Source: Luteolibacter sp.
GTDB taxonomy: Bacteria; Verrucomicrobiota; Verrucomicrobiia; Verrucomicrobiales; Akkermansiaceae
Direction: 5' to 3'
Length of the DNA: 64,000 nt
Assembly (NCBI GenBank): GCA_051251795.1
Contig: JBPOGC010000001.1
Location: forward strand, 9,207 to 73,206
Part shown: positions 1-9,900 of the stretch, piece by piece
Layout: each line of letters opens with the position of its first letter
Numbering within the stretch: the stretch's first letter is position 1
Translations under genes and position numbers: made by a program
Notes under the pieces: model-generated
The model's input: the letters and a program-made list of their open reading frames with translations, nothing else
What the model was told of the DNA's origin: nothing
Databases searched by the model: none

Positions 1-722
1 CTCTTGGGATAGGCACAGATTCGATGACAGTCGGTGGCCTCAATCACTTCTATGACCTTACTAGTAGTGGGCCACCTGTCTTCTGAAGTCCCAAGGAATT
101 TCACGAAAGCCTGCTCCGCCTCGGCAAACAAAGGCGGCAAGGGAATTGAAGTCGACCCAATGACGGAACTTGGCGGCGTGAGCAAAGACAAAGTTACACC
201 TTCATCGGGGAGACTCGGACTTGGCGGTGGCTTAGCTCCTCCAGCGACCCCAGCTCTGAGAGTGTTCTGCCACTTTGCCAGCTGGTCAAGCGTCAGATCT
301 GCTCCCGCAGCCCCCCATAGCCTATCAAAGTAGGAATGGCAGTCTTTCGCCACATTTTTGTCTTGGGAGACAAAACCATATTCCTGATTCCGGAACAGCG
401 CGGCCTCCGTCAAGTTCGCGGAGGTCACCATAGAGTGCCGATCACCGAAAAGATACATCTTGGAATGCAACCCTTTGACACCCCGGATTTGAGCACCTTG
501 CTTTATCATCCATTTCAGTGCACCTACGTCGCTGACCCCGGAAGAGAAATCCGTCAGATTGAAGCGGGTGATGATTTGGATCCCCGGTCGGTGCCCTGAG
601 TCGAGCAGCCTCTTTACTGCGCGCTGCTTGATGAACGGACAGACGACACGCAGTGTGGCGTGGCGTTCCTTCGCCCTCGCGGTGAAATGGGAAGACCAGC
701 CGCCATCTATCAGTTCGATCAT
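1..722 (-). CDS. Phospholipase D (HKD)-family nuclease-like protein; C-terminus runs off the left edge of the window
   Basis: Absent from the ORF track because there is no stop in the window. Manual translation from ATG at 722 gives MIELIDGGWSSHF...CPFIKQ...ITRFNLTDFSSGVSD...GLHSKMYLFGDRHSMVTSANLTEAALFRNQEYG..., open to position 1. It has an HxK...D motif followed by SxN and N.E.G, as in PLD-type nucleases. Confidence 0.85.
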   Translation of the reverse strand, partial: MIELIDGGWSSHFTARAKERHATLRVVCPFIKQRAVKRLLDSGHRPGIQIITRFNLTDFSSGVSDVGALKWMIKQGAQIRGVKGLHSKMYLFGDRHSMVTSANLTEAALFRNQEYGFVSQDKNVAKDCHSYFDRLWGAAGADLTLDQLAKWQNTLRAGVAGGAKPPPSPSLPDEGVTLSLLTPPSSVIGSTSIPLPPLFAEAEQAFVKFLGTSEDRWPTTSKVIEVIEATDCHRICAYPK

Positions 723-778
723 GGGATGTGTTTACGCATGTCGTTCGTATTTGAAAAGGTGAACTGCCGCCCTCTAGC

Positions 779-2272
779 TCAGAGATCAATCCTCCTGTCT
801 GCAAATGGGGACTCCAATATGGTTCCGGTGTAGCCGGCCTTTGCTGCAATAATCAGGTTCACAAAACCAGCCAGCCGACCGAGGGCATCAAGTGCCGTGT
901 GAGGATCTCCCTTGGTGACCGATCCGTAGTTGCCGTGGGCAGGGCCATGGCGATGCTTGTTGAATAATTTGAACATATCCGTGACCCACTCGCTCCGACC
1001 GGAAAAAAGGCGGAGGAACACATCGTCCCATTCCACCCGGCGATCCTGATAGTTCCAATTTTCGACCATCCTTTTAAGGCGTCTGATCATGTGGATTCTT
1101 TCCTCGCCGGCCGAGCCGTCTTCAAGAGCCTTGATCCAGCGGAGCGTCTCTCCACGAACCTCCGTATAGGCATCCGGGGGAACCTGCTTTTTAAAAAGCT
1201 CTGACCGCAGGCCTTCGATCACAGAGCAGATCATCGCCATCTGGAGCGGCGTGGGAGCTGCGTCTGAGTCAGCACCCCGAAAGACCCACATGCTCTCTTT
1301 GAGATCACTGGACTTGTCGTTGGGAAGGCTCAGATACAGTGCCGCCACTGAGGCAATCAATTTGGTGGGGTCATCAGGCGTCATGAGACCATCCCGCTCT
1401 CGGATCGGAACCATGCTTCCCTGTTCCTGCCGCCTTACCCACATGACCTGTTCCGTCACCCGCCAGTCACAACGACGTTGCAGATAAGTCGGCCACGGTT
1501 GGATTGCGTGTGTGTAAGCGACCGCATGGAGCAAGGCATCGAACCGCAAACTAGCTTCGTCGTCGGTTCCCCCTTCATGCTTGAAGCCGACTTCCAGATG
1601 ATCACCAACCTGCTTCAACGAAAACAGGCCTCCTAGGGCAGCTCCATCCCATGTGGCCTCTTTCGAACCACTGCGTTCTCCCCAAAATGGATGGCTCTCC
1701 GTCCACTTGACCCCTTTGTTGAAAAACTGGAGCTTCGTGTTCGAAAAGATGGCGATATGCTCGTATCTTGGTTGCTTGGCTTCAGCATCCCCATCAGGTG
1801 GGACGGGAGGACGGTGAGGATTTATACGGTTTAGCTTCTCCCGGATTTCATCGTGGGTCTGCGAATCTGATGCTGATGGAGGAATGATGATCTTTTCGGG
1901 CTTTAGGATAGCAGATGAGTTTTTAAGATCGCCGATCACTTGCACTGTGGATGAGCATGGAGGCCAGATCTTCCTGAACTCCACCCGCAGTTTGTTGCCC
2001 AGAACTCCGGATGCGTCCAAGGTATCTTCTTCCCTTACTCTGTTGGTCGGGGTGAAGAAGGATTGCAAGTCCCTGCCCTCACTGTCGCGAACTTCAACCT
2101 CATAGCGGTTTCCTTCAGGATCAATTTTCAGAGTCGCCGCGAGACGAACGGAGCCAGCCGCCGAGTTCAAAACGAAATCATCGATTGGCAGCGAGAGGGT
2201 TTTGTCTAGTGAGGGATCTAGCAGAAACTTTTTTACGTCGTCTTCGATATACATGATTTGATTGGAGGACAT
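779..2272 (-). CDS. HEPN-motif protein (497 aa), ApeA-like layout with C-terminal RxxxxH
   Basis: Helical C-terminal region with SVIEGL and KHRHGPAHG (R-H-x3-H at about 935-952). The start abuts the upstream gene's stop (2272/2273). Confidence 0.6.
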   Translation of the reverse strand: MSSNQIMYIEDDVKKFLLDPSLDKTLSLPIDDFVLNSAAGSVRLAATLKIDPEGNRYEVEVRDSEGRDLQSFFTPTNRVREEDTLDASGVLGNKLRVEFRKIWPPCSSTVQVIGDLKNSSAILKPEKIIIPPSASDSQTHDEIREKLNRINPHRPPVPPDGDAEAKQPRYEHIAIFSNTKLQFFNKGVKWTESHPFWGERSGSKEATWDGAALGGLFSLKQVGDHLEVGFKHEGGTDDEASLRFDALLHAVAYTHAIQPWPTYLQRRCDWRVTEQVMWVRRQEQGSMVPIRERDGLMTPDDPTKLIASVAALYLSLPNDKSSDLKESMWVFRGADSDAAPTPLQMAMICSVIEGLRSELFKKQVPPDAYTEVRGETLRWIKALEDGSAGEERIHMIRRLKRMVENWNYQDRRVEWDDVFLRLFSGRSEWVTDMFKLFNKHRHGPAHGNYGSVTKGDPHTALDALGRLAGFVNLIIAAKAGYTGTILESPFADRRIDL

Positions 2273-3073
2273 CTATGGGGAAATGCCGGTCTTCACGGCT
2301 CCGTCAAGTCGCCTGTGAAGCAGTGAAATTAGCGAAAGATAGTCGGCCGCATCATGTTCCCCATCCCAGAGCAATCTGGGTTCGTGAGCCAGACGGTTTC
2401 TAACTCCGGCGAAACAGCCTTTTAGCAGAGCGGCGAAGCCTTTGTGGTCTGATTGTTCTAGTTCCGACCGTAGCGAGTTGATCGCAAGAATCGGGCGATC
2501 AATGGAGAACACCTTGTCGATCAGCTTCGCCCCATCAATATGCACGCCTGACATTTCCCGGATTCTCTGGGCTAATCCCTTGGAGGCTTCGAACACAGCG
2601 TGGAAGTAGTCTTCCTGCATAAGTTCCGCCCGACAATATTTAGTGACTTGCTCATGAATCCTCCTGCCATGCAGCTGGGATTGGAGAGTACGGGCACGCT
2701 TTTGAGCGTCCGATAGCGTCGAAGCAGGATCCACGGATTTGAATGACCCATCTTCGGAGAGGTTGAGGCCGCAGAAGGCCAGAACCGTGTTTAGCTCAAT
2801 CCGTTTGAAGTTGAAGTCATCAGTCTTCCCTACGAATCGAGCGGGATTCATAAGATCCTGGACGAAGGCGATGATCCTATTCGCCGACTTGTCACGACGT
2901 TGAACATCGAGAAATACGGAATACAGACGACGCCATTTGGTCGATTCTCCCGACAAGTCCTGCATGCCACGGCGGATGATAGCGCGGCCAAGTTCCGAGC
3001 CTGTGCCACATTCACCGAGCACTTTCGCAAGAGACTCAATGACAGCGTCTGGAAATGACGGAACCGCTGCCAT
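2273..3073 (-). CDS. TIGR02391-family protein (AbiJ-like N-terminus plus HEPN domain)
   Basis: Contains IHEQVTKYCRAELMQEDYFHAVFEASKGLAQRIR, DGAKLIDKVFS and GVRNRLAHEPR (RNxxAH), which are characteristic of this family. Confidence 0.85.
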   Translation of the reverse strand: MAAVPSFPDAVIESLAKVLGECGTGSELGRAIIRRGMQDLSGESTKWRRLYSVFLDVQRRDKSANRIIAFVQDLMNPARFVGKTDDFNFKRIELNTVLAFCGLNLSEDGSFKSVDPASTLSDAQKRARTLQSQLHGRRIHEQVTKYCRAELMQEDYFHAVFEASKGLAQRIREMSGVHIDGAKLIDKVFSIDRPILAINSLRSELEQSDHKGFAALLKGCFAGVRNRLAHEPRLLWDGEHDAADYLSLISLLHRRLDGAVKTGISP

Positions 3074-3478
3074 ACCCTAAGAAAACCCGTCGAAATGGAA
3101 TCGCGGCGCGAGCCTATACATAGAAGCATTCGGGAGGGTGCTGGAAAAGTTCCTCATTTTTGGTAACTATCTAATAACATTCAGATTTTTGCCAAGCAAG
3201 CGCCGAAGTAGTGGATACAGAAAACTCAGAATCCAAGAAAGAAAGGCAACGACATCCTAGAACTCGTATTACACCGGCCTGCTCACCCTCCTTAATTCTG
3301 ACTACAACCTCCGCCACAACACAGGAAGGGGGTAGCATTTAGAGAGGTCTCCTTGTCAAGAAGAGATTAATAGAGACGATCTGCCGTAGATACCGTGATC
3401 AGACCTTTGAAAGGAAACGTCACCCATTGTAGTTTTCAACTTTTCATTTGATTTCAGGATTGCCCCATCTTATGCACA

Positions 3479-3874
3479 TTGCCCGTGGCTATCGTCTCCC
3501 GCATTCTGCTCATGATCCTCCTGCTTTGCAGCCAAGGGATGAGCGTTTGTTTCGACAAGTCCGGACACAGCTATGTTAGCGATCCTGTTCTCCAGTCTCT
3601 CGCTGGCGATGAAGGGTCTCCATGCCATTGCCCTTGCGACGATGACGAGTGCGAAGAGCACGAATTGAAACTAGATGCGATGCCCGGCGACTCTGTAGAG
3701 GTTCCTCCGGTTCCCTGCGTTTCACTTCCGCCTGACTTCTCGGTTCTTCCGAACTTGGAAGAGTTGCTCGCCGCATCCGGTCAGTCCGAAGTCCGGTTCG
3801 ATCATCCTGAGGAACTTACTCATGCCTCCCGGCTCCGGAAGACATTGATGTCCTGCGTGGTTTTACGCATTTGA
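3479..3874 (+). CDS. Small exported Cys/His-rich protein heading RND operon 1
   Basis: Hydrophobic N-terminus and CHCPCDDDECEEH motif, directly upstream of the TolC gene. Confidence 0.65.
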   Translation: MPVAIVSRILLMILLLCSQGMSVCFDKSGHSYVSDPVLQSLAGDEGSPCHCPCDDDECEEHELKLDAMPGDSVEVPPVPCVSLPPDFSVLPNLEELLAASGQSEVRFDHPEELTHASRLRKTLMSCVVLRI

Positions 3875-4017
3875 TAAAACGGCCTGACCCAAGGCCAGCC
3901 GTCCCACACTACCCCGATTTTGGGTAATCTGTGGAAGCCTGTTTCAGGCAATCTCGGCTGTGGTTTTCCGCGATCCCTTATTCGCGATCCATTTACGTTT
4001 TTTCAAATTCACCACCA

Positions 4018-5319
4018 ATGTACCCTCGACTCGTCTTTTTCATTTTTACTCCAGTTCTGCTTCTTTCCTGCGCAAGTGATCCTACTTCCGCACTGTCAAA
4101 AATCAGCGCCAATCTCAACGATACAAATCGGAGTGCCGGTTTTTCTTCCGCTCCTTCCTTGAAAGGTTCCGTCACCCGTGATCAAGCGATCCGGCACGCA
4201 CTCACCTACAGCCCATCCCTGCAATCGCAGCGTGCCGAACTCCGTGCGCTCGAAGCGGAAATCATACAGGCGGGTCTGCCTCCGAATCCGGATCTGGGAC
4301 TGGATGTGGAAAACTTCGCCGGAAACGGAGGTAGTCGCGGATTCAACGGAGCAGAGGTTACCGCCGCCCTTTCCCAACGTCTCGAACTCGGCGGCAAGCG
4401 TCCCAAGAGAACCCTGGTCGCCGCCCTTGAGGCGGAGTCCCTCCGTTCAGAGATCGCCAGCGAAGAGCGACGGATCAGAATGGAAGCGGATCGTGCTTTC
4501 ACCACTCTTGTCGAAGCTCGCGAAATCCGGGAGTTCAACGAGCGAAACGTGATCCGTGCGGAGGAATACCTCGGTGTCCTCGATACCCTTTTGGAAGTGG
4601 GCAAGGGCAATCGCATCGACGCGGGACGAGCAAAACTCTCCGTTTCCGAAGCCAAGGAACTTCTCGCTGAGGCGCGGTCGGCGGAAACCAGTGCCGCATC
4701 CGATCTAGGGCAAATATGGGGCGGAGGAACCTCAGATGTGAGCGCCTCGGGCACACTCGGAAGTCCGGGCGGAAGCGTCCCCACCAATCTGGAGGCGGCA
4801 ATCGAAAGGCATCCCGCGATGCGCGCCGCCGCCTACCGCTTTGCCAAAGCCCAGGCCGTTTACGATCTGGAAAAATCCGGTCGCTACCCTGATGTAGAGC
4901 TAGAAGGTGGCCTTCGCGAAATGCGCGATGCCAATGAGACCTCCGCAGTGGTTGGCATACGGGTTCCCTTACCAATCTTTAACCGTAACCAAGGCAACAT
5001 ACAGGCAGCGAAAGAACGGCTCGATCGCGCCAAAGGAGAGGGTCGATCAACCGCCAGTGAACTACGCTCCACTCTCACCAAGTTTTCCGCCGAACTACGC
5101 GCCGCGAGAAGCCGCGCCGTCGAGTTCGATTCCAGAACACTCTCCGCAGCCAGCCAGGCTTTGGAGGACACCCTCGAAGCCTATTCGGCAGGAAAGGCCT
5201 CGCTCATCGAAGTCCTTGATGCCCGCGAAACCCTCTTCGATGTCGAGCGCGGCCAAGTCCGTGCCAAGGCAGATCTTCTACGCGCCCACAATTCCCTACG
5301 ACTGATGACCAACGACTAA
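4018..5319 (+). CDS. czcC: TolC-family outer membrane factor (CzcC-like lipoprotein)
   Basis: Contains PPNPDLGLDVENF, SQRLELGGKR and PLPIFNRNQGNI, with lipobox LLSC. Start moved from 3931 to ATG 4018. Confidence 0.9.
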   Translation: MYPRLVFFIFTPVLLLSCASDPTSALSKISANLNDTNRSAGFSSAPSLKGSVTRDQAIRHALTYSPSLQSQRAELRALEAEIIQAGLPPNPDLGLDVENFAGNGGSRGFNGAEVTAALSQRLELGGKRPKRTLVAALEAESLRSEIASEERRIRMEADRAFTTLVEAREIREFNERNVIRAEEYLGVLDTLLEVGKGNRIDAGRAKLSVSEAKELLAEARSAETSAASDLGQIWGGGTSDVSASGTLGSPGGSVPTNLEAAIERHPAMRAAAYRFAKAQAVYDLEKSGRYPDVELEGGLREMRDANETSAVVGIRVPLPIFNRNQGNIQAAKERLDRAKGEGRSTASELRSTLTKFSAELRAARSRAVEFDSRTLSAASQALEDTLEAYSAGKASLIEVLDARETLFDVERGQVRAKADLLRAHNSLRLMTND

Positions 5320-5332
5320 CACCAACAAAACT

Positions 5333-6892
5333 ATGAAAATGAAATACAAACTGACCCAGGCCATCGGCCTCGGAATCCTCGCCGTTTTCTTCGCGGCATG
5401 CACCGCTGAGAAAAACGAAACCGCAGCCAACCCCGAAGCCTCCGAAGAATCGTCCTCCGGCGGTGAGATCGAAGTCCACGCCATGGCCGATTGTCCGGCG
5501 GGAGACGGCTGCTTCATCTGCGATCCATCAAAACGTGATGTCGGACGCCTCTGGTGCAAGGAGCACGACCGCTACGAAGACCGCTGCTGGCTTTGCCATC
5601 CTGAAATGAAGGATGAGAAACGTCTCTACTGCACGGAGCACGGTGTCTATGAGGATGAGTGCTATCTCTGCCACCCCGAGATCAAGGGGAAAGATGAATC
5701 CACCTCTTCCAACACCGCTCCCGCCGATGTCCTGATGTGCAAAGAACACGGCGTGGCGGAAAGGGAATGCGCCATCTGCCAGCCACAACTCGCAGCCGGT
5801 CTGAAACCAGGAGAAAACCTCAAAATCCGTGTCGCCTCCGCCGAGGCAATGGAGCGCGTCGGAGTGGAGGTTTCCAATCCCGAATCCTCCACCGCTAGAC
5901 CCTCCGTCGAGGCCTATGCGGTCGTCGACTACAACCAGAACCAAGTTGCGAGGATCACACCTCTAGTCGAAGGCATCGTCCGGGAAATATCGGTGGTGCC
6001 CGGCCAAACCGTCGCCGCAGGAGAAATCATAGGCACACTCCATTCACCGGAGTTCGCGGAAATGAAGAGTCGTTTCCTTGCCGCCGCAGCCGCCCGGAAA
6101 CTTGCCGGGCTTCAGGTGGAACGCGAACGCAAACTCGCGGACAAACGCATCTCCGCCGCCTCGGAATTGGAGACAGCGGAAGCCGCAGAAGAGGTCGCTT
6201 CGGTCGATCTCGCCGCCGCCAGACAGCGACTTCTGAACCTCGGCCTGAGTGAGAGCGAAATCGACCTGCTTGCCTCCGATGGCCGACCTACATCCTTGCT
6301 GGCACTGAAAGCCCCCTTCCCCGGAACCATCGTTGACCGCGATGTGGCTGTCGGCGAACGGGTCGAAGCTGGCGAACCGATCTTCGTCCTCGCAGATCTT
6401 TCCACCATGTGGCTAGAGCTTTCCATACCCTCCGGCAATGCCGTGGGGATCGCTCCCGGCATGGAAGTTAGCGCGACGTTTTCCGACCTTCCGGGTACCG
6501 TCATCACTGCGGAACTCGTCTGGGTTGCCAGCGAGGTGGACGAGAAAACACGCCGCATACAGGCACGTGCATTGGTCACCGCTCCACCGGTCTCCCTCCG
6601 CAAAGGTCTCTATGGAGAGGCGCGCATCCATCTGGGCGAAGCCACCCCATCCCTCTCCGTGCCAACCGGAGCGATCCAGACCATCGACGGTGTACCCTTT
6701 GTTTTTGTCCGCACGGAACCAGAGCTCTATGCCGCCACACGGGTCGAGATCGCACCCGGAACCGGGTCGGGACAGACGACGGCAATTGCCAGTGGGCTTG
6801 CAGCCGGAGACCGGATCGTCAGCAAAGGTAGCTACATCCTCCGTTCTGAGTTCCTGAAATCCCTTCTCGGAGCCGGTTGCGTGGATGACTGA
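5333..6892 (+). CDS. czcB: RND membrane fusion protein (CzcB-like) with N-terminal Cys/His repeats
   Basis: MFP core (ARITPLVEGIV, LKAPFPGTIV, ADLSTMWLE), lipobox FAAC and repeated CxEH...CxxC units. Confidence 0.9.
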   Translation: MKMKYKLTQAIGLGILAVFFAACTAEKNETAANPEASEESSSGGEIEVHAMADCPAGDGCFICDPSKRDVGRLWCKEHDRYEDRCWLCHPEMKDEKRLYCTEHGVYEDECYLCHPEIKGKDESTSSNTAPADVLMCKEHGVAERECAICQPQLAAGLKPGENLKIRVASAEAMERVGVEVSNPESSTARPSVEAYAVVDYNQNQVARITPLVEGIVREISVVPGQTVAAGEIIGTLHSPEFAEMKSRFLAAAAARKLAGLQVERERKLADKRISAASELETAEAAEEVASVDLAAARQRLLNLGLSESEIDLLASDGRPTSLLALKAPFPGTIVDRDVAVGERVEAGEPIFVLADLSTMWLELSIPSGNAVGIAPGMEVSATFSDLPGTVITAELVWVASEVDEKTRRIQARALVTAPPVSLRKGLYGEARIHLGEATPSLSVPTGAIQTIDGVPFVFVRTEPELYAATRVEIAPGTGSGQTTAIASGLAAGDRIVSKGSYILRSEFLKSLLGAGCVDD

Positions 6893-6951: not shown

Positions 6952-9900
6952 ATGTTTCTCCACCTGATCCGTTTCTGTCTCGCCAACCGCCTGTTGGTCT
7001 TCCTTTTCACCGCCCTGTTAATAGTCGCGGGATTCTGGGCAGGCTCGCGTGTGCCGGTCGATGCCTTCCCGGACACCACCCCGATCCAGGTGCAGATCAA
7101 CACCGTCGCCCCCTCATTGAACGGTGAGGAAATCGAGCAACAGATCACCCTTCCCGTAGAGCTGGAGATTTCCGGGCTTCCCGGCCTCGCCAGCGTTCGC
7201 TCTGTCTCGAAATTCGGACTCTCCCAAGTCGTCGCCACCTTCGATGACGACACGGAAATCACTACCGCCCGGCAGTATATCTCCGAGCGACTGCTCACCG
7301 TCGAACTTCCCGATGGTGTTGGCACTCCCCAGATGGGACCTATCTCGACCGGGCTTGGGGAAATTTTCCACTACGTCATCAGTAGTAGTGACGGCAGCCG
7401 GACACTCGAAGAACTCCGCACCATCCACGACTGGATCATCAAGCCTGAGCTGCGCAAGGTGCGCGGCGTCGCCGAAGTCAATTCCTGGGGCGGTCTCGAA
7501 AAACAATACCATGTTGTCGTCGATCCGGAGCTGCTATTGAAATACGACCTCGCCCTGGCCGATGTCATCGAGGCCCTTGAAAACAACAACCGCAACGTTG
7601 GTGGCGGTCGCCTAACCGTTAGCGGTCAGGATCTCCTCGTCCACGGCATCGGTCGTGTCACATCCATCCCGGAAATCGGACGAATCGAAGTCGCCGCAAG
7701 CGCGGGCACTCCTGTCCGCGTCTCCGACATCGCGGAAGTCCGTATCGGCAGCGAGCTACGCCGTGGTGCAGTTACTGCAAATGGAGAAGGCGAAGTCGTG
7801 CTAGGCCTTGCCTTCATGCTCATGGGCGAGAACGCCCAGACCGTCACCCAAGCACTGAAAGAACGCCTTGAGGAAATCCGCCCCTCCATCCCGGACGGCG
7901 TGGAAGTGGAGGTAGTCTATGACCGCACGGAGCTGACCGATTCCGTGCTTGATACCGTCAGCCACAACCTCATCGGCGGCGCGGTTCTCGTTACGCTCAC
8001 CCTGCTCGTCCTGCTTGGGAACGTCCGGGCTGGCCTGCTTGTCGCCATCTGCATTCCGCTTGCCATGCTCTTCGCCGTGTTGGGGATGAATTACTTCGCC
8101 ATCACTGCCAGTCTGCTCAGTCTGGGTGCCATTGATTTCGGCCTGATTGTTGATGGCTCCGTCGTCATGACGGAGGCAAACCTGCGAGGCCTCGCCGCAC
8201 GCACCCGTGAAGCTGGCAGGAAACTGACCATCGCCGAGCGTTTCGATTGTATTCTAGAATCCAGCCGATCCGTGGCCAGACCGATCCTCTTCGGCATGGG
8301 AATCATCGCCGTGGTCTTCCTCCCCATTCTCACGCTGGAAGGAACCGAGGGAAAAATGTTCCGCCCGATGGCCATCACCTTCATCCTCGCCCTGCTTGGC
8401 GCTCTCATAATCGCCATCGTGATTTCTCCGGTGCTCGGCCATCTGTTTCTTCCACGAAAATTCAAATCCACCGAAGGTTGGCTCTCGCGCAAGCTGACCG
8501 GAGGCTACTCCGCCATTCTTGGTCTTGTCCTGAAACTCCGCTGGCCGGTTCTCGCCCTCGTGGTAGTATTGCTCGTCGTGACCGGTATCCTGGCGACACG
8601 ACTCGGAGGCGAGTTTATCCCGAGGCTCAGTGAGGGAGCCATCACCGCCAACACCATCCGCCTCGCGGGCACGTCCATCGACACTTCCACGGAATACAAC
8701 ACCCGCATTGAGCAACTCCTGAAGGAGAAATTTCCCGATGAAATCCGCCACGTCTGGAGCCGGATCGGGACGGCAGAAATCGCCACCGATCCCATGGGCA
8801 CGGAGCTTACCGACATTTTCCTATCCCTGACTCCACGCGAGCAATGGACGAGAGCGAAAACCCAGGACGAACTGGTGGTGGCGATGCAGGAAACGGTTTC
8901 CACTCTTCCCGGCGTGAACATCCTTTTCACCCAGCCCATCGAGATGCGGCTCAACGAGATGGAGTCCGGAGTCCGCTCCGATGTTGGCATCCTGATCTAC
9001 GGGGACAGTTTTGAGAAACTCACCCGCTTGAGCGACGAGATCCAGAAAGTCCTGGTCGATATTCCCGGCCAGGCGGATGTCTCCACCGATCAGATCAGCG
9101 GCCAGCCCGGACTGCGCATTGAACTCCGCCCGGAAAAGATGGCGCGTCTCGGTGTCTCCGCCGCCGAAATCCTGCCATACATCGAGGCCATCGGCGTGCT
9201 ACGCGTCGGAGAAATCTATGAAGGTCAGCGACAATTCCCTCTCGCCATTGTTTTACCGGACGAATACCGCACTCGTATCGACGCGGTTCGCAACCTCGTC
9301 ATCCCTACTTCCACCGGCGCTCGCATTCCGCTTTCCGATGTCGCGGATGTCGTCGAGGCACCCGGATCTGCCACCATCAACCGCGAGTGGGGTCGCCGTC
9401 TGATCCGCGTCCAGAGCAACGTCGATGGCCGCGATGTCGTCTCCTTTGTAGAAGAAGCGAAGCGCAAGATCGCAGAGGAAATCGACCTACCTGAGGGCTA
9501 CGTCATCGCATGGGGCGGCCAGTTCGAGAACCTCGAACGCGCCCACACCCGGCTCTCTCTCGTCGTGCCTCTGACCATGATCCTCGTCTTCGTCTTGCTT
9601 TATCTCAGCCTGCGGAACTTCAGAGACGTAGCACTGATCTATCTCGGGATCCCCTTCGCCCTTGTCGGCGGCGTCCTGTCGCTCTGGATGCGCGACATCC
9701 CGTTCAGTATCAGTGCCGCCATCGGCTTCATCGCGCTCTTCGGCATCGCCGTGCTCAACGGCCAGATCCTCATCGAGGCTATACGCTCGAACCTCCAGGA
9801 CACCACCGATGCCGTGACTGCGGTCAAACACGCAGCCACCGAACGACTCCGACCGGTGCTTGCCACCGCCATCACCGATGCCATCGGCTTCCTCCCCATG

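Follow-up and report, generated by a model that had tools for sequence, protein, structure and literature searches.

ApeA is an abortive-infection nuclease that cleaves tRNA anticodons (bioRxiv 10.64898/2026.01.26.701840). PD-lambda-3 of E. coli ECOR28 appears as 'Nuclease, HEPN' in the supplement of Vassallo et al., the main text of which contains no description of it (PMC9519451); it acts via abortive infection (PMC13190303) and has been assigned a PD(D/E)XK nuclease domain (PMC10952713). The embedding of HEPN genes in restriction-modification (R-M) operons is an established pattern (PMC3710099), and defence functions are over-represented among genes located inside such operons (bioRxiv 10.1101/2024.01.29.577857). 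Here, three co-directional minus-strand genes at the left end of a 64,000-nucleotide stretch of Luteolibacter sp. DNA are compared with these systems. This stretch, called the window below, corresponds to positions 9207-73206 of contig C1 (JBPOGC010000001.1) in a 309-contig assembly. Gene 1 (window 2273-3073; a 266-aa open reading frame, ORF) encodes a Hypoth_Ymh/TIGR02391 HEPN protein, gene 2 (779-2272) encodes a 497-aa protein without annotation, and gene 3 (1-722; the ORF, 3-722, is open at the window edge) encodes the first 240 codons of a PLD/HKD protein.

The three genes are best explained as separable anti-phage modules that are stacked on a tRNA-Cys island, rather than as an obligate three-component system, a reading to which we give a probability of about 0.58. 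A stack of separate defence genes is favoured because each of the families also occurs without the others, mostly as cargo in restriction operons, and the loci fit what is known of R-M operons, in which defence cargo is stacked (PMC3710099; bioRxiv 10.1101/2024.01.29.577857). In such a stack, the 497-aa protein would act alone as an abortive-infection RNase: its N-terminal part would sense an infection cue, its HEPN domains would dimerize to build a composite active site, as in ApeA, and this site would cut host RNA, most likely tRNA. The gene 1 product would be a second, independent HEPN RNase, and the HKD nuclease encoded by gene 3 would dimerize to form one active site. The RNase and DNase activities, their activation by infection, the independence of the modules and their co-transcription are what we infer from the sequence.

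The neighbourhoods of the 497-aa family carry this reading. About 20 distinct loci containing a member of the family were examined, and in none of them do all three genes occur together. The earlier note had proposed an unnamed, new three-gene system. Its view that no named system matches the operon stands, as PADLOC recognizes single components only (PD-Lambda-3_B, and a DrmC model with no other part of DISARM), and the defence-type nuclease character that it ascribed to all three genes is supported. The trio itself is not conserved: no other locus has all three genes and each family is also found separately, which largely undoes the expectation that the three would co-occur elsewhere. The three-gene combination is thus probably not a new system. 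Counting hsdM, hsdS or hsdR genes that flank the 497-aa family gene, about 10 of the roughly 20 loci have a Type I R-M context (L002, L005, L007, L008, L009, L013/L014, L027, L049, L050 and the P0002 contig), and the usual position of the gene is between hsdS and hsdR. The family is sparse and horizontally scattered, and this cargo slot of Type I R-M operons is its usual home.

What stands beside the family varies from locus to locus. In L005, a complete SPARTA pair (3147-5980; TIR_2 plus short pAgo, PADLOC pAgo_I 7e-173) lies between hsdS and the 497-aa homologue, and at another locus a complete Wadjet system, JetABCD, is the immediate neighbour. Further neighbours include an ABC-ATPase pair resembling AAA_15/PDC-M55, EcsC/PDC-S29, DUF3800, HATPase_c plus DUF4325, and UvrA-like, ClpP and HNH genes. 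In L009, the 497-aa homologue is located between hsdS and a HATPase_c plus DUF4325 pair, with neither a Ymh nor a PLD gene nearby. At L034 (7394-13407), the gene for a distant 497-aa family member shares 14 bp with the start of a giant ORF (>2000 aa, without a Pfam match), and this pair adjoins a QatABCD-like cluster and a TIR gene. As a separate observation on these operons, a DUF4325 gene of about 102 aa stands just before hsdR in verrucomicrobial Type I R-M operons (L007, 9522-10759; L008; L009; L014; L027) and is preceded in L007, L008 and L009 by a HATPase_c/STAS-like gene of about 310 aa; this DUF4325-containing unit looks like a separate portable module.

Several observations weigh against full separability. 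Links of the 497-aa gene to the other two genes are more frequent than would be expected of random neighbours, and the window genes are tightly packed, with gaps of 0-18 bp and 56 bp. The two closest relatives are L027 and the P0002 contig. In L027, a 497-aa gene is followed by a PLD gene across a 55-bp spacer (74% and 71% identity to the window proteins), and on the P0002 contig the 497-aa homologue is 83% identical and is followed 56 bp downstream by a gene that could not be read; at neither locus is the upstream gene Ymh. In L007, the 497-aa homologue is directly preceded by a 30-codon 5' stub of a PLD395-type gene (7781-7870; MIELTDIGWTSYFAARAKECDGKLRVVCQF), which looks like the scar of a cassette replacement. 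In a relative with 40% identity, a Ymh gene (58% identical) comes directly after the 497-aa gene with a 4-bp overlap, in the reverse order. In L017 (773-930) and L018 (7844-8000), a 52-aa ORF immediately upstream of the 497-aa homologue matches the Ymh N-terminus over its first 32 residues at 44% identity and is probably a truncated Ymh gene. Also, a distant member of the family is followed by a different small HEPN protein, DUF4145. Pairing of the 497-aa and PLD genes is therefore counted at one confirmed locus, a probable second and one stub, and pairing of the 497-aa and Ymh genes at one locus and one stub, with two or three lineages involved. Partial links of this kind are also expected from cassette shuffling within a shared hotspot, and a real two-gene or modular system stays as a rival reading.

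In the first form of that rival, the 497-aa and PLD genes would make up a two-gene core, pairing RNase and DNase effectors or a sensor and an effector, and the gene in first place could be exchanged, being Ymh here and EcsC or one for a 270-aa protein in relatives. The order of the 497-aa and PLD genes with a kept spacer of 55-56 bp in L027 and probably on the P0002 contig is consistent with such a core, as is the variable same-strand gene found 5-20 bp before the 497-aa family in most loci. However, the pairing is confirmed in close relatives only and so may be inherited linkage, and intact 497-aa homologues occur without a PLD gene in L009, L014, L005, L006 and L002. The PLD family is also far larger (>1000 clusters, compared with about 200 for the 497-aa family) and its members also stand alone, and the gene upstream of the 497-aa homologue in L005 belongs to the complete SPARTA system. 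The two-gene core is therefore rather unlikely. In a wider form, the 497-aa family would be the hub of an undescribed modular abortive-infection system with interchangeable adjacent partners (Ymh/DUF4145 HEPN, PLD, EcsC and others), which is a doubtful proposal of the same standing. If it were true, the operon would couple two HEPN RNases to an HKD DNase, and one sensor would lead to the destruction of both RNA and DNA.

Under the favoured reading of separate modules, the undescribed 497-aa family is the main subject of interest. Searches of Pfam, PADLOC, NCBIfam and PHROGs gave no match for the window protein. A word-indexed search returned homologues in 26 clusters, the few of which with source names all belong to Verrucomicrobiota, and an exhaustive profile search extended the family to 201 clusters at 50% identity. 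Its distribution is sparse, with members in 3 of 401 genomes of the phylum. In an AlphaFold2 model built from the family alignment (pLDDT 86.8), residues 1-285 are mostly beta and form two sub-domains, and residues 290-480 are all-helical. In 25 members down to 17% identity (17-25%), R441 and H446 never vary and E353 hardly varies. The codon for E353 is at window 1214-1216 and the R441xxxxH446 motif (RHGPAH) is at 935-952. The Rx4H motif thus lies within an all-helical C-terminal domain, as is characteristic of HEPN proteins with their Rx4-6H motif.

Profile comparisons add a remote link to ApeA. Two distant members of the family match the Pfam HEPN_Apea domain over its whole length at sub-threshold values (0.0023 and 0.023). 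For a direct comparison, a family alignment was built for a genuine protein of 464 aa from the same phylum carrying ApeA_NTD1 and HEPN_Apea. When the 497-aa family was compared with this ApeA alignment by hhalign, 151 columns were aligned (E 0.0033, probability 10%), and E353, R441 and H446 were placed against the invariant ApeA residues E321, R401 and H406; the best of 16 reversed or block-shuffled decoys reached E 0.095, as against 0.0033 for the real alignment. The same comparison with the Ymh alignment aligned only the 17-column motif, indicating that the two HEPN proteins of the operon are not close paralogues.

Other results count against an ApeA-like HEPN identity for the 497-aa protein. 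Foldseek searches of the PDB with the full-length and C-terminal-domain models, and of BFVD with the full-length model, returned no match at E<=0.001, so that structural comparison does not confirm the HEPN fold. The likeness to ApeA is weak, at an hhalign probability of 10%, and is absent for the N-terminal part. In addition, a profile search of the family against PDB sequences found no match, and the beta-rich part has a weak, non-significant Foldseek likeness to tail-tube/Hcp-like barrels and PilZ. The HEPN reading put forward in the earlier note thus draws on the Rx4H motif and on the weak HEPN_Apea profile match, and was not confirmed by Foldseek, which recovered no HEPN fold. Judged by the motif and the profile match, the C-terminal domain is probably a remotely ApeA-like HEPN domain.

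In its overall layout, the 497-aa protein resembles ApeA. The two are similar in size (497 aa and 464 aa for the genuine member), and in both an N-terminal region of 280-300 aa is followed by a C-terminal helical domain, HEPN in ApeA and putatively so in the 497-aa protein, with a conserved E and RxxxxH. The N-terminal part is beta-rich in the 497-aa model, and ApeA_NTD1 is described as mostly beta strands (PMC3710099). Both families are sporadically distributed, and ApeA too occurs embedded in R-M operons (PMC3710099). However, the 497-aa protein fails the membership tests for ApeA. The family has no match to HEPN_Apea above the cut-off, none to ApeA_NTD1 and none to PADLOC ApeA: against the HEPN_Apea (PF18739) gathering score of 24.4, the window protein gives no match and the best family member reaches 18.8 bits. 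ApeA_NTD1 (PF18862) was not matched by any of 25 members at E<=0.1, nor was an N-terminal alignment produced by hhalign, whereas genuine members score 2e-56; similarity of the N-terminal part to ApeA_NTD1 or to anything else was not detected. The motif also differs (RHGPAH/RNxxAHG in the 497-aa family, TRNYxTH in ApeA), and the structures of E. coli ApeA are mainly helical throughout. We regard the 497-aa protein as probably an ApeA-like abortive-infection RNase.

The most valuable item at this locus is the undescribed 497-aa family, read as HEPN defence proteins that resemble ApeA and are carried in R-M operons. With about 200 clusters at 50% identity and no entry in Pfam, NCBIfam, PHROGs or PADLOC 2.0, the family makes a good candidate for a new HEPN defence that works as a single protein, and its recurrent presence in the hsdS-hsdR cargo slot provides 'guilt by embedding' support for a role in defence. 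As its N-terminal region has no recognizable relative, the protein could respond to an infection signal of a new kind. Relatives retain 5' stubs of PLD and Ymh genes that were displaced, which indicates that defence genes are shuffled as cassettes.

In the gene 1 product, an N-terminal domain of about 135 aa precedes a C-terminal HEPN domain that carries the RNRLAH motif (R225-H230, codons at window 2384-2401). R225, N226 and H230 are invariant in the family alignment of gene 1. The protein matches PF09509 (Hypoth_Ymh) at 4e-40 (136.8 bits, cut-off 25) and TIGR02391 at 2e-33 (115.1 bits, cut-off 39.45), so that its original TIGR02391 assignment holds. Full-length matches were also obtained to the PADLOC model PD-Lambda-3_B (PDLC03987; 9.3e-74, positions 1 to 264-268 of 270) and to phrog_6297 (8e-60). 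Homologues of this protein occur in varied company: a lone full-length homologue adjoins the cI repressor gene in the lysogeny module of temperate phage TP712, further full-length matches come from streptococcal prophage records, and full-length homologues adjoin Hachiman on enterobacterial plasmids. A PDB sequence search with the Ymh protein gave nothing useful. Gene 1 would encode a PD-lambda-3-B-type Ymh HEPN RNase that acts independently.

The full-length match to PD-Lambda-3_B (9e-74) raises a further alternative, in which Ymh and PLD proteins would form a 'nuclease + Ymh-HEPN' abortive-infection system like PD-lambda-3, with PLD replacing PD-(D/E)XK and the 497-aa gene inserted as an extra module. 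The known PD-lambda-3 is indeed 'Nuclease, HEPN' and acts by abortive infection, and here too a gene matching component B over its full length shares one operon with a nuclease gene. As the validated PD-lambda-3 consists of a nuclease and a HEPN protein, there is a precedent for a Ymh protein that acts together with a nuclease, which argues against the independence of gene 1. The nuclease at this locus differs, however, in being of the PLD/HKD type, and the 497-aa gene stands between its gene and the Ymh gene. PD-Lambda-3_A was matched neither by the 497-aa protein (E<=1) nor by the PLD protein (E<=0.01), and membership in PD-lambda-3 itself was rejected, as component A was not found. Moreover, Ymh and PLD genes are adjacent in no other locus examined, and the prophage Ymh homologues have no nuclease neighbour at all. 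We consider this alternative improbable.

When the sequence left of the window is included, gene 3 has its full length of 395 aa (C1 8741-9928, of which C1 8741-9206 lies outside the window). It encodes a single PLDc_2 domain with one HKD motif per chain, suggesting that the protein would act as a dimer. The match to PLDc_2 (PF13091) is at about 4e-13 to 1e-12 (49.7 bits, cut-off 27), in agreement with the PLD assignment made from the sequence earlier (4e-13). The HxK residues are H86-S-K88 (codons at window 459-467), and the SxN residues are S101-A-N103 within TSANLT. The protein matches the PADLOC DrmC model PDLC02599 end to end (3.8e-105, positions 5-385 of 387). By contrast, it scores 42.9 bits against the NCBIfam DrmC_I equivalog, below the cut-off of 133. 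A search of the whole genome (94.7% complete) gave no match to DrmB/DUF1998 (PF09369). Because the score is far below the DrmC equivalog cut-off and the genome is without DrmB, gene 3 is taken as an orphan DrmC-type HKD nuclease outside DISARM, with a putative DNase activity. It is like DISARM DrmC in being a single-HKD PLD nuclease with an end-to-end match to the PADLOC model; unlike in DISARM, no DrmB is found in the genome, the operon has no helicase or methylase and members of the subfamily stand by themselves in Type I R-M operons. DISARM was thus rejected for this locus, where the whole genome is without DrmB, the operon is without DrmA helicase or methylase, and the neighbours are relaxase and integrase genes. 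Elsewhere, a member of the PLD family, which comprises more than 1000 clusters, stands alone between hsdS and hsdR in L028, and another adjoins an HNH gene on a different element (L029). Nothing useful was returned by a PDB sequence search with the PLD protein.

The strong preference of the 497-aa family for the hsdS-hsdR slot could also mean that its HEPN protein is a guard like PrrC, kept inactive by the Type I R-M complex and freed once restriction is blocked by a phage. The earlier example of PrrC/EcoprrI and the linkage of HEPN and R-M genes (PMC3710099) are in line with this, and this genome has a Type I R-M operon of its own on contig C27, with which the protein would have to act in trans. 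Like PrrC/RloC and other defence cargo of Type I R-M operons, all three families (497-aa, PLD and Ymh) are found repeatedly between hsd genes in stacks with other systems, and like PrrC, the 497-aa protein would be a HEPN nuclease with an N-terminal regulatory domain. On the other hand, neither an ATPase nor an HsdR-binding domain was recognized in the 497-aa protein, no ABC-ATPase domain corresponding to that of PrrC/RloC is present here, and the genes are located on the tRNA-Cys island and not in an hsd operon. The 497-aa gene is not beside hsd genes in the window, L006, L034, L035 or L038, and the presence of many unrelated systems in the same hsd slot suggests a cargo hotspot rather than a functional tie. 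A PrrC-like guard is thus quite improbable.

That the three are accessory island genes with housekeeping or plasmid-maintenance roles is very improbable: although they are known from sequence alone and adjoin integrase and relaxase genes, all three families are found repeatedly among known defence systems and are sporadically distributed, and two of the three proteins match PADLOC models.

The operon layout is largely as first described. The ORF listing confirms three co-directional minus-strand ORFs in the window, with gaps of 0 and 56 bp, and the motifs noted earlier are all present: RNRLAH (225-230), RHGPAH (441-446), HSKMYLFGD (86-94) and TSANLT (100-105). The TAG of gene 1 directly abuts the ATG of gene 2. 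In all gene 2 homologues, however, the start is Met7 (MYIEDD; window 2254), the likely true start of gene 2, and the first gap is therefore probably 18 bp rather than 0. The 56-bp spacer between genes 2 and 3 (723-778) is kept in length in relatives (55 bp in L027, 56 bp on the P0002 contig), but not in sequence. By consensus matching, no terminator-like site was found between the three genes, and a promoter-like site on the minus strand (TTGGCA, 18-nt spacer, GATAGT; 3166-3195, L001 12401-12372) lies about 90 bp 5' of gene 1; this site is a consensus match only, and the count of such sites is below the shuffle mean. The three genes are probably co-transcribed.

The earlier note had suspected that the operon continues past the window, which the sequence to the left does not bear out. 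To the left of the PLD gene, a relaxase-like gene (C1 7775-8620; MobA/VirD2 1e-09) lies on the plus strand and converges on it, so that the operon stops at the PLD gene and has exactly three genes; continuation to the left was rejected on this ground.

The genomic-island setting was seen correctly, as the whole window is located inside a tRNA-Cys island. A perfect 53-bp direct repeat occurs at C1 4194-4246 and C1 75592-75644 (window about -5012 and +66386) and corresponds to the 3' part of tRNA-Cys(GCA), the intact tRNA being at the right copy (C1 c[75593..75667]). The repeats bound an integrated island of about 71.4 kb. A tyrosine-integrase-like gene (C1 4318-5502) is located beside the left repeat, the relaxase-like gene belongs to the same left island end, and the operon begins 4.5 kb from the integrase end. 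No attachment-site repeats were found within a 9-kb 'islet', the real repeats being 71 kb apart. Outside the island, in the genome's own Type I R-M operon (C27 469-8569), hsdS and hsdR are separated by two cargo ORFs (259 aa and 566 aa). Just to the right of the three-gene operon, a small ORF (window 3479-3874) for a Cys/His-rich exported protein precedes the first czc-type RND efflux operon.

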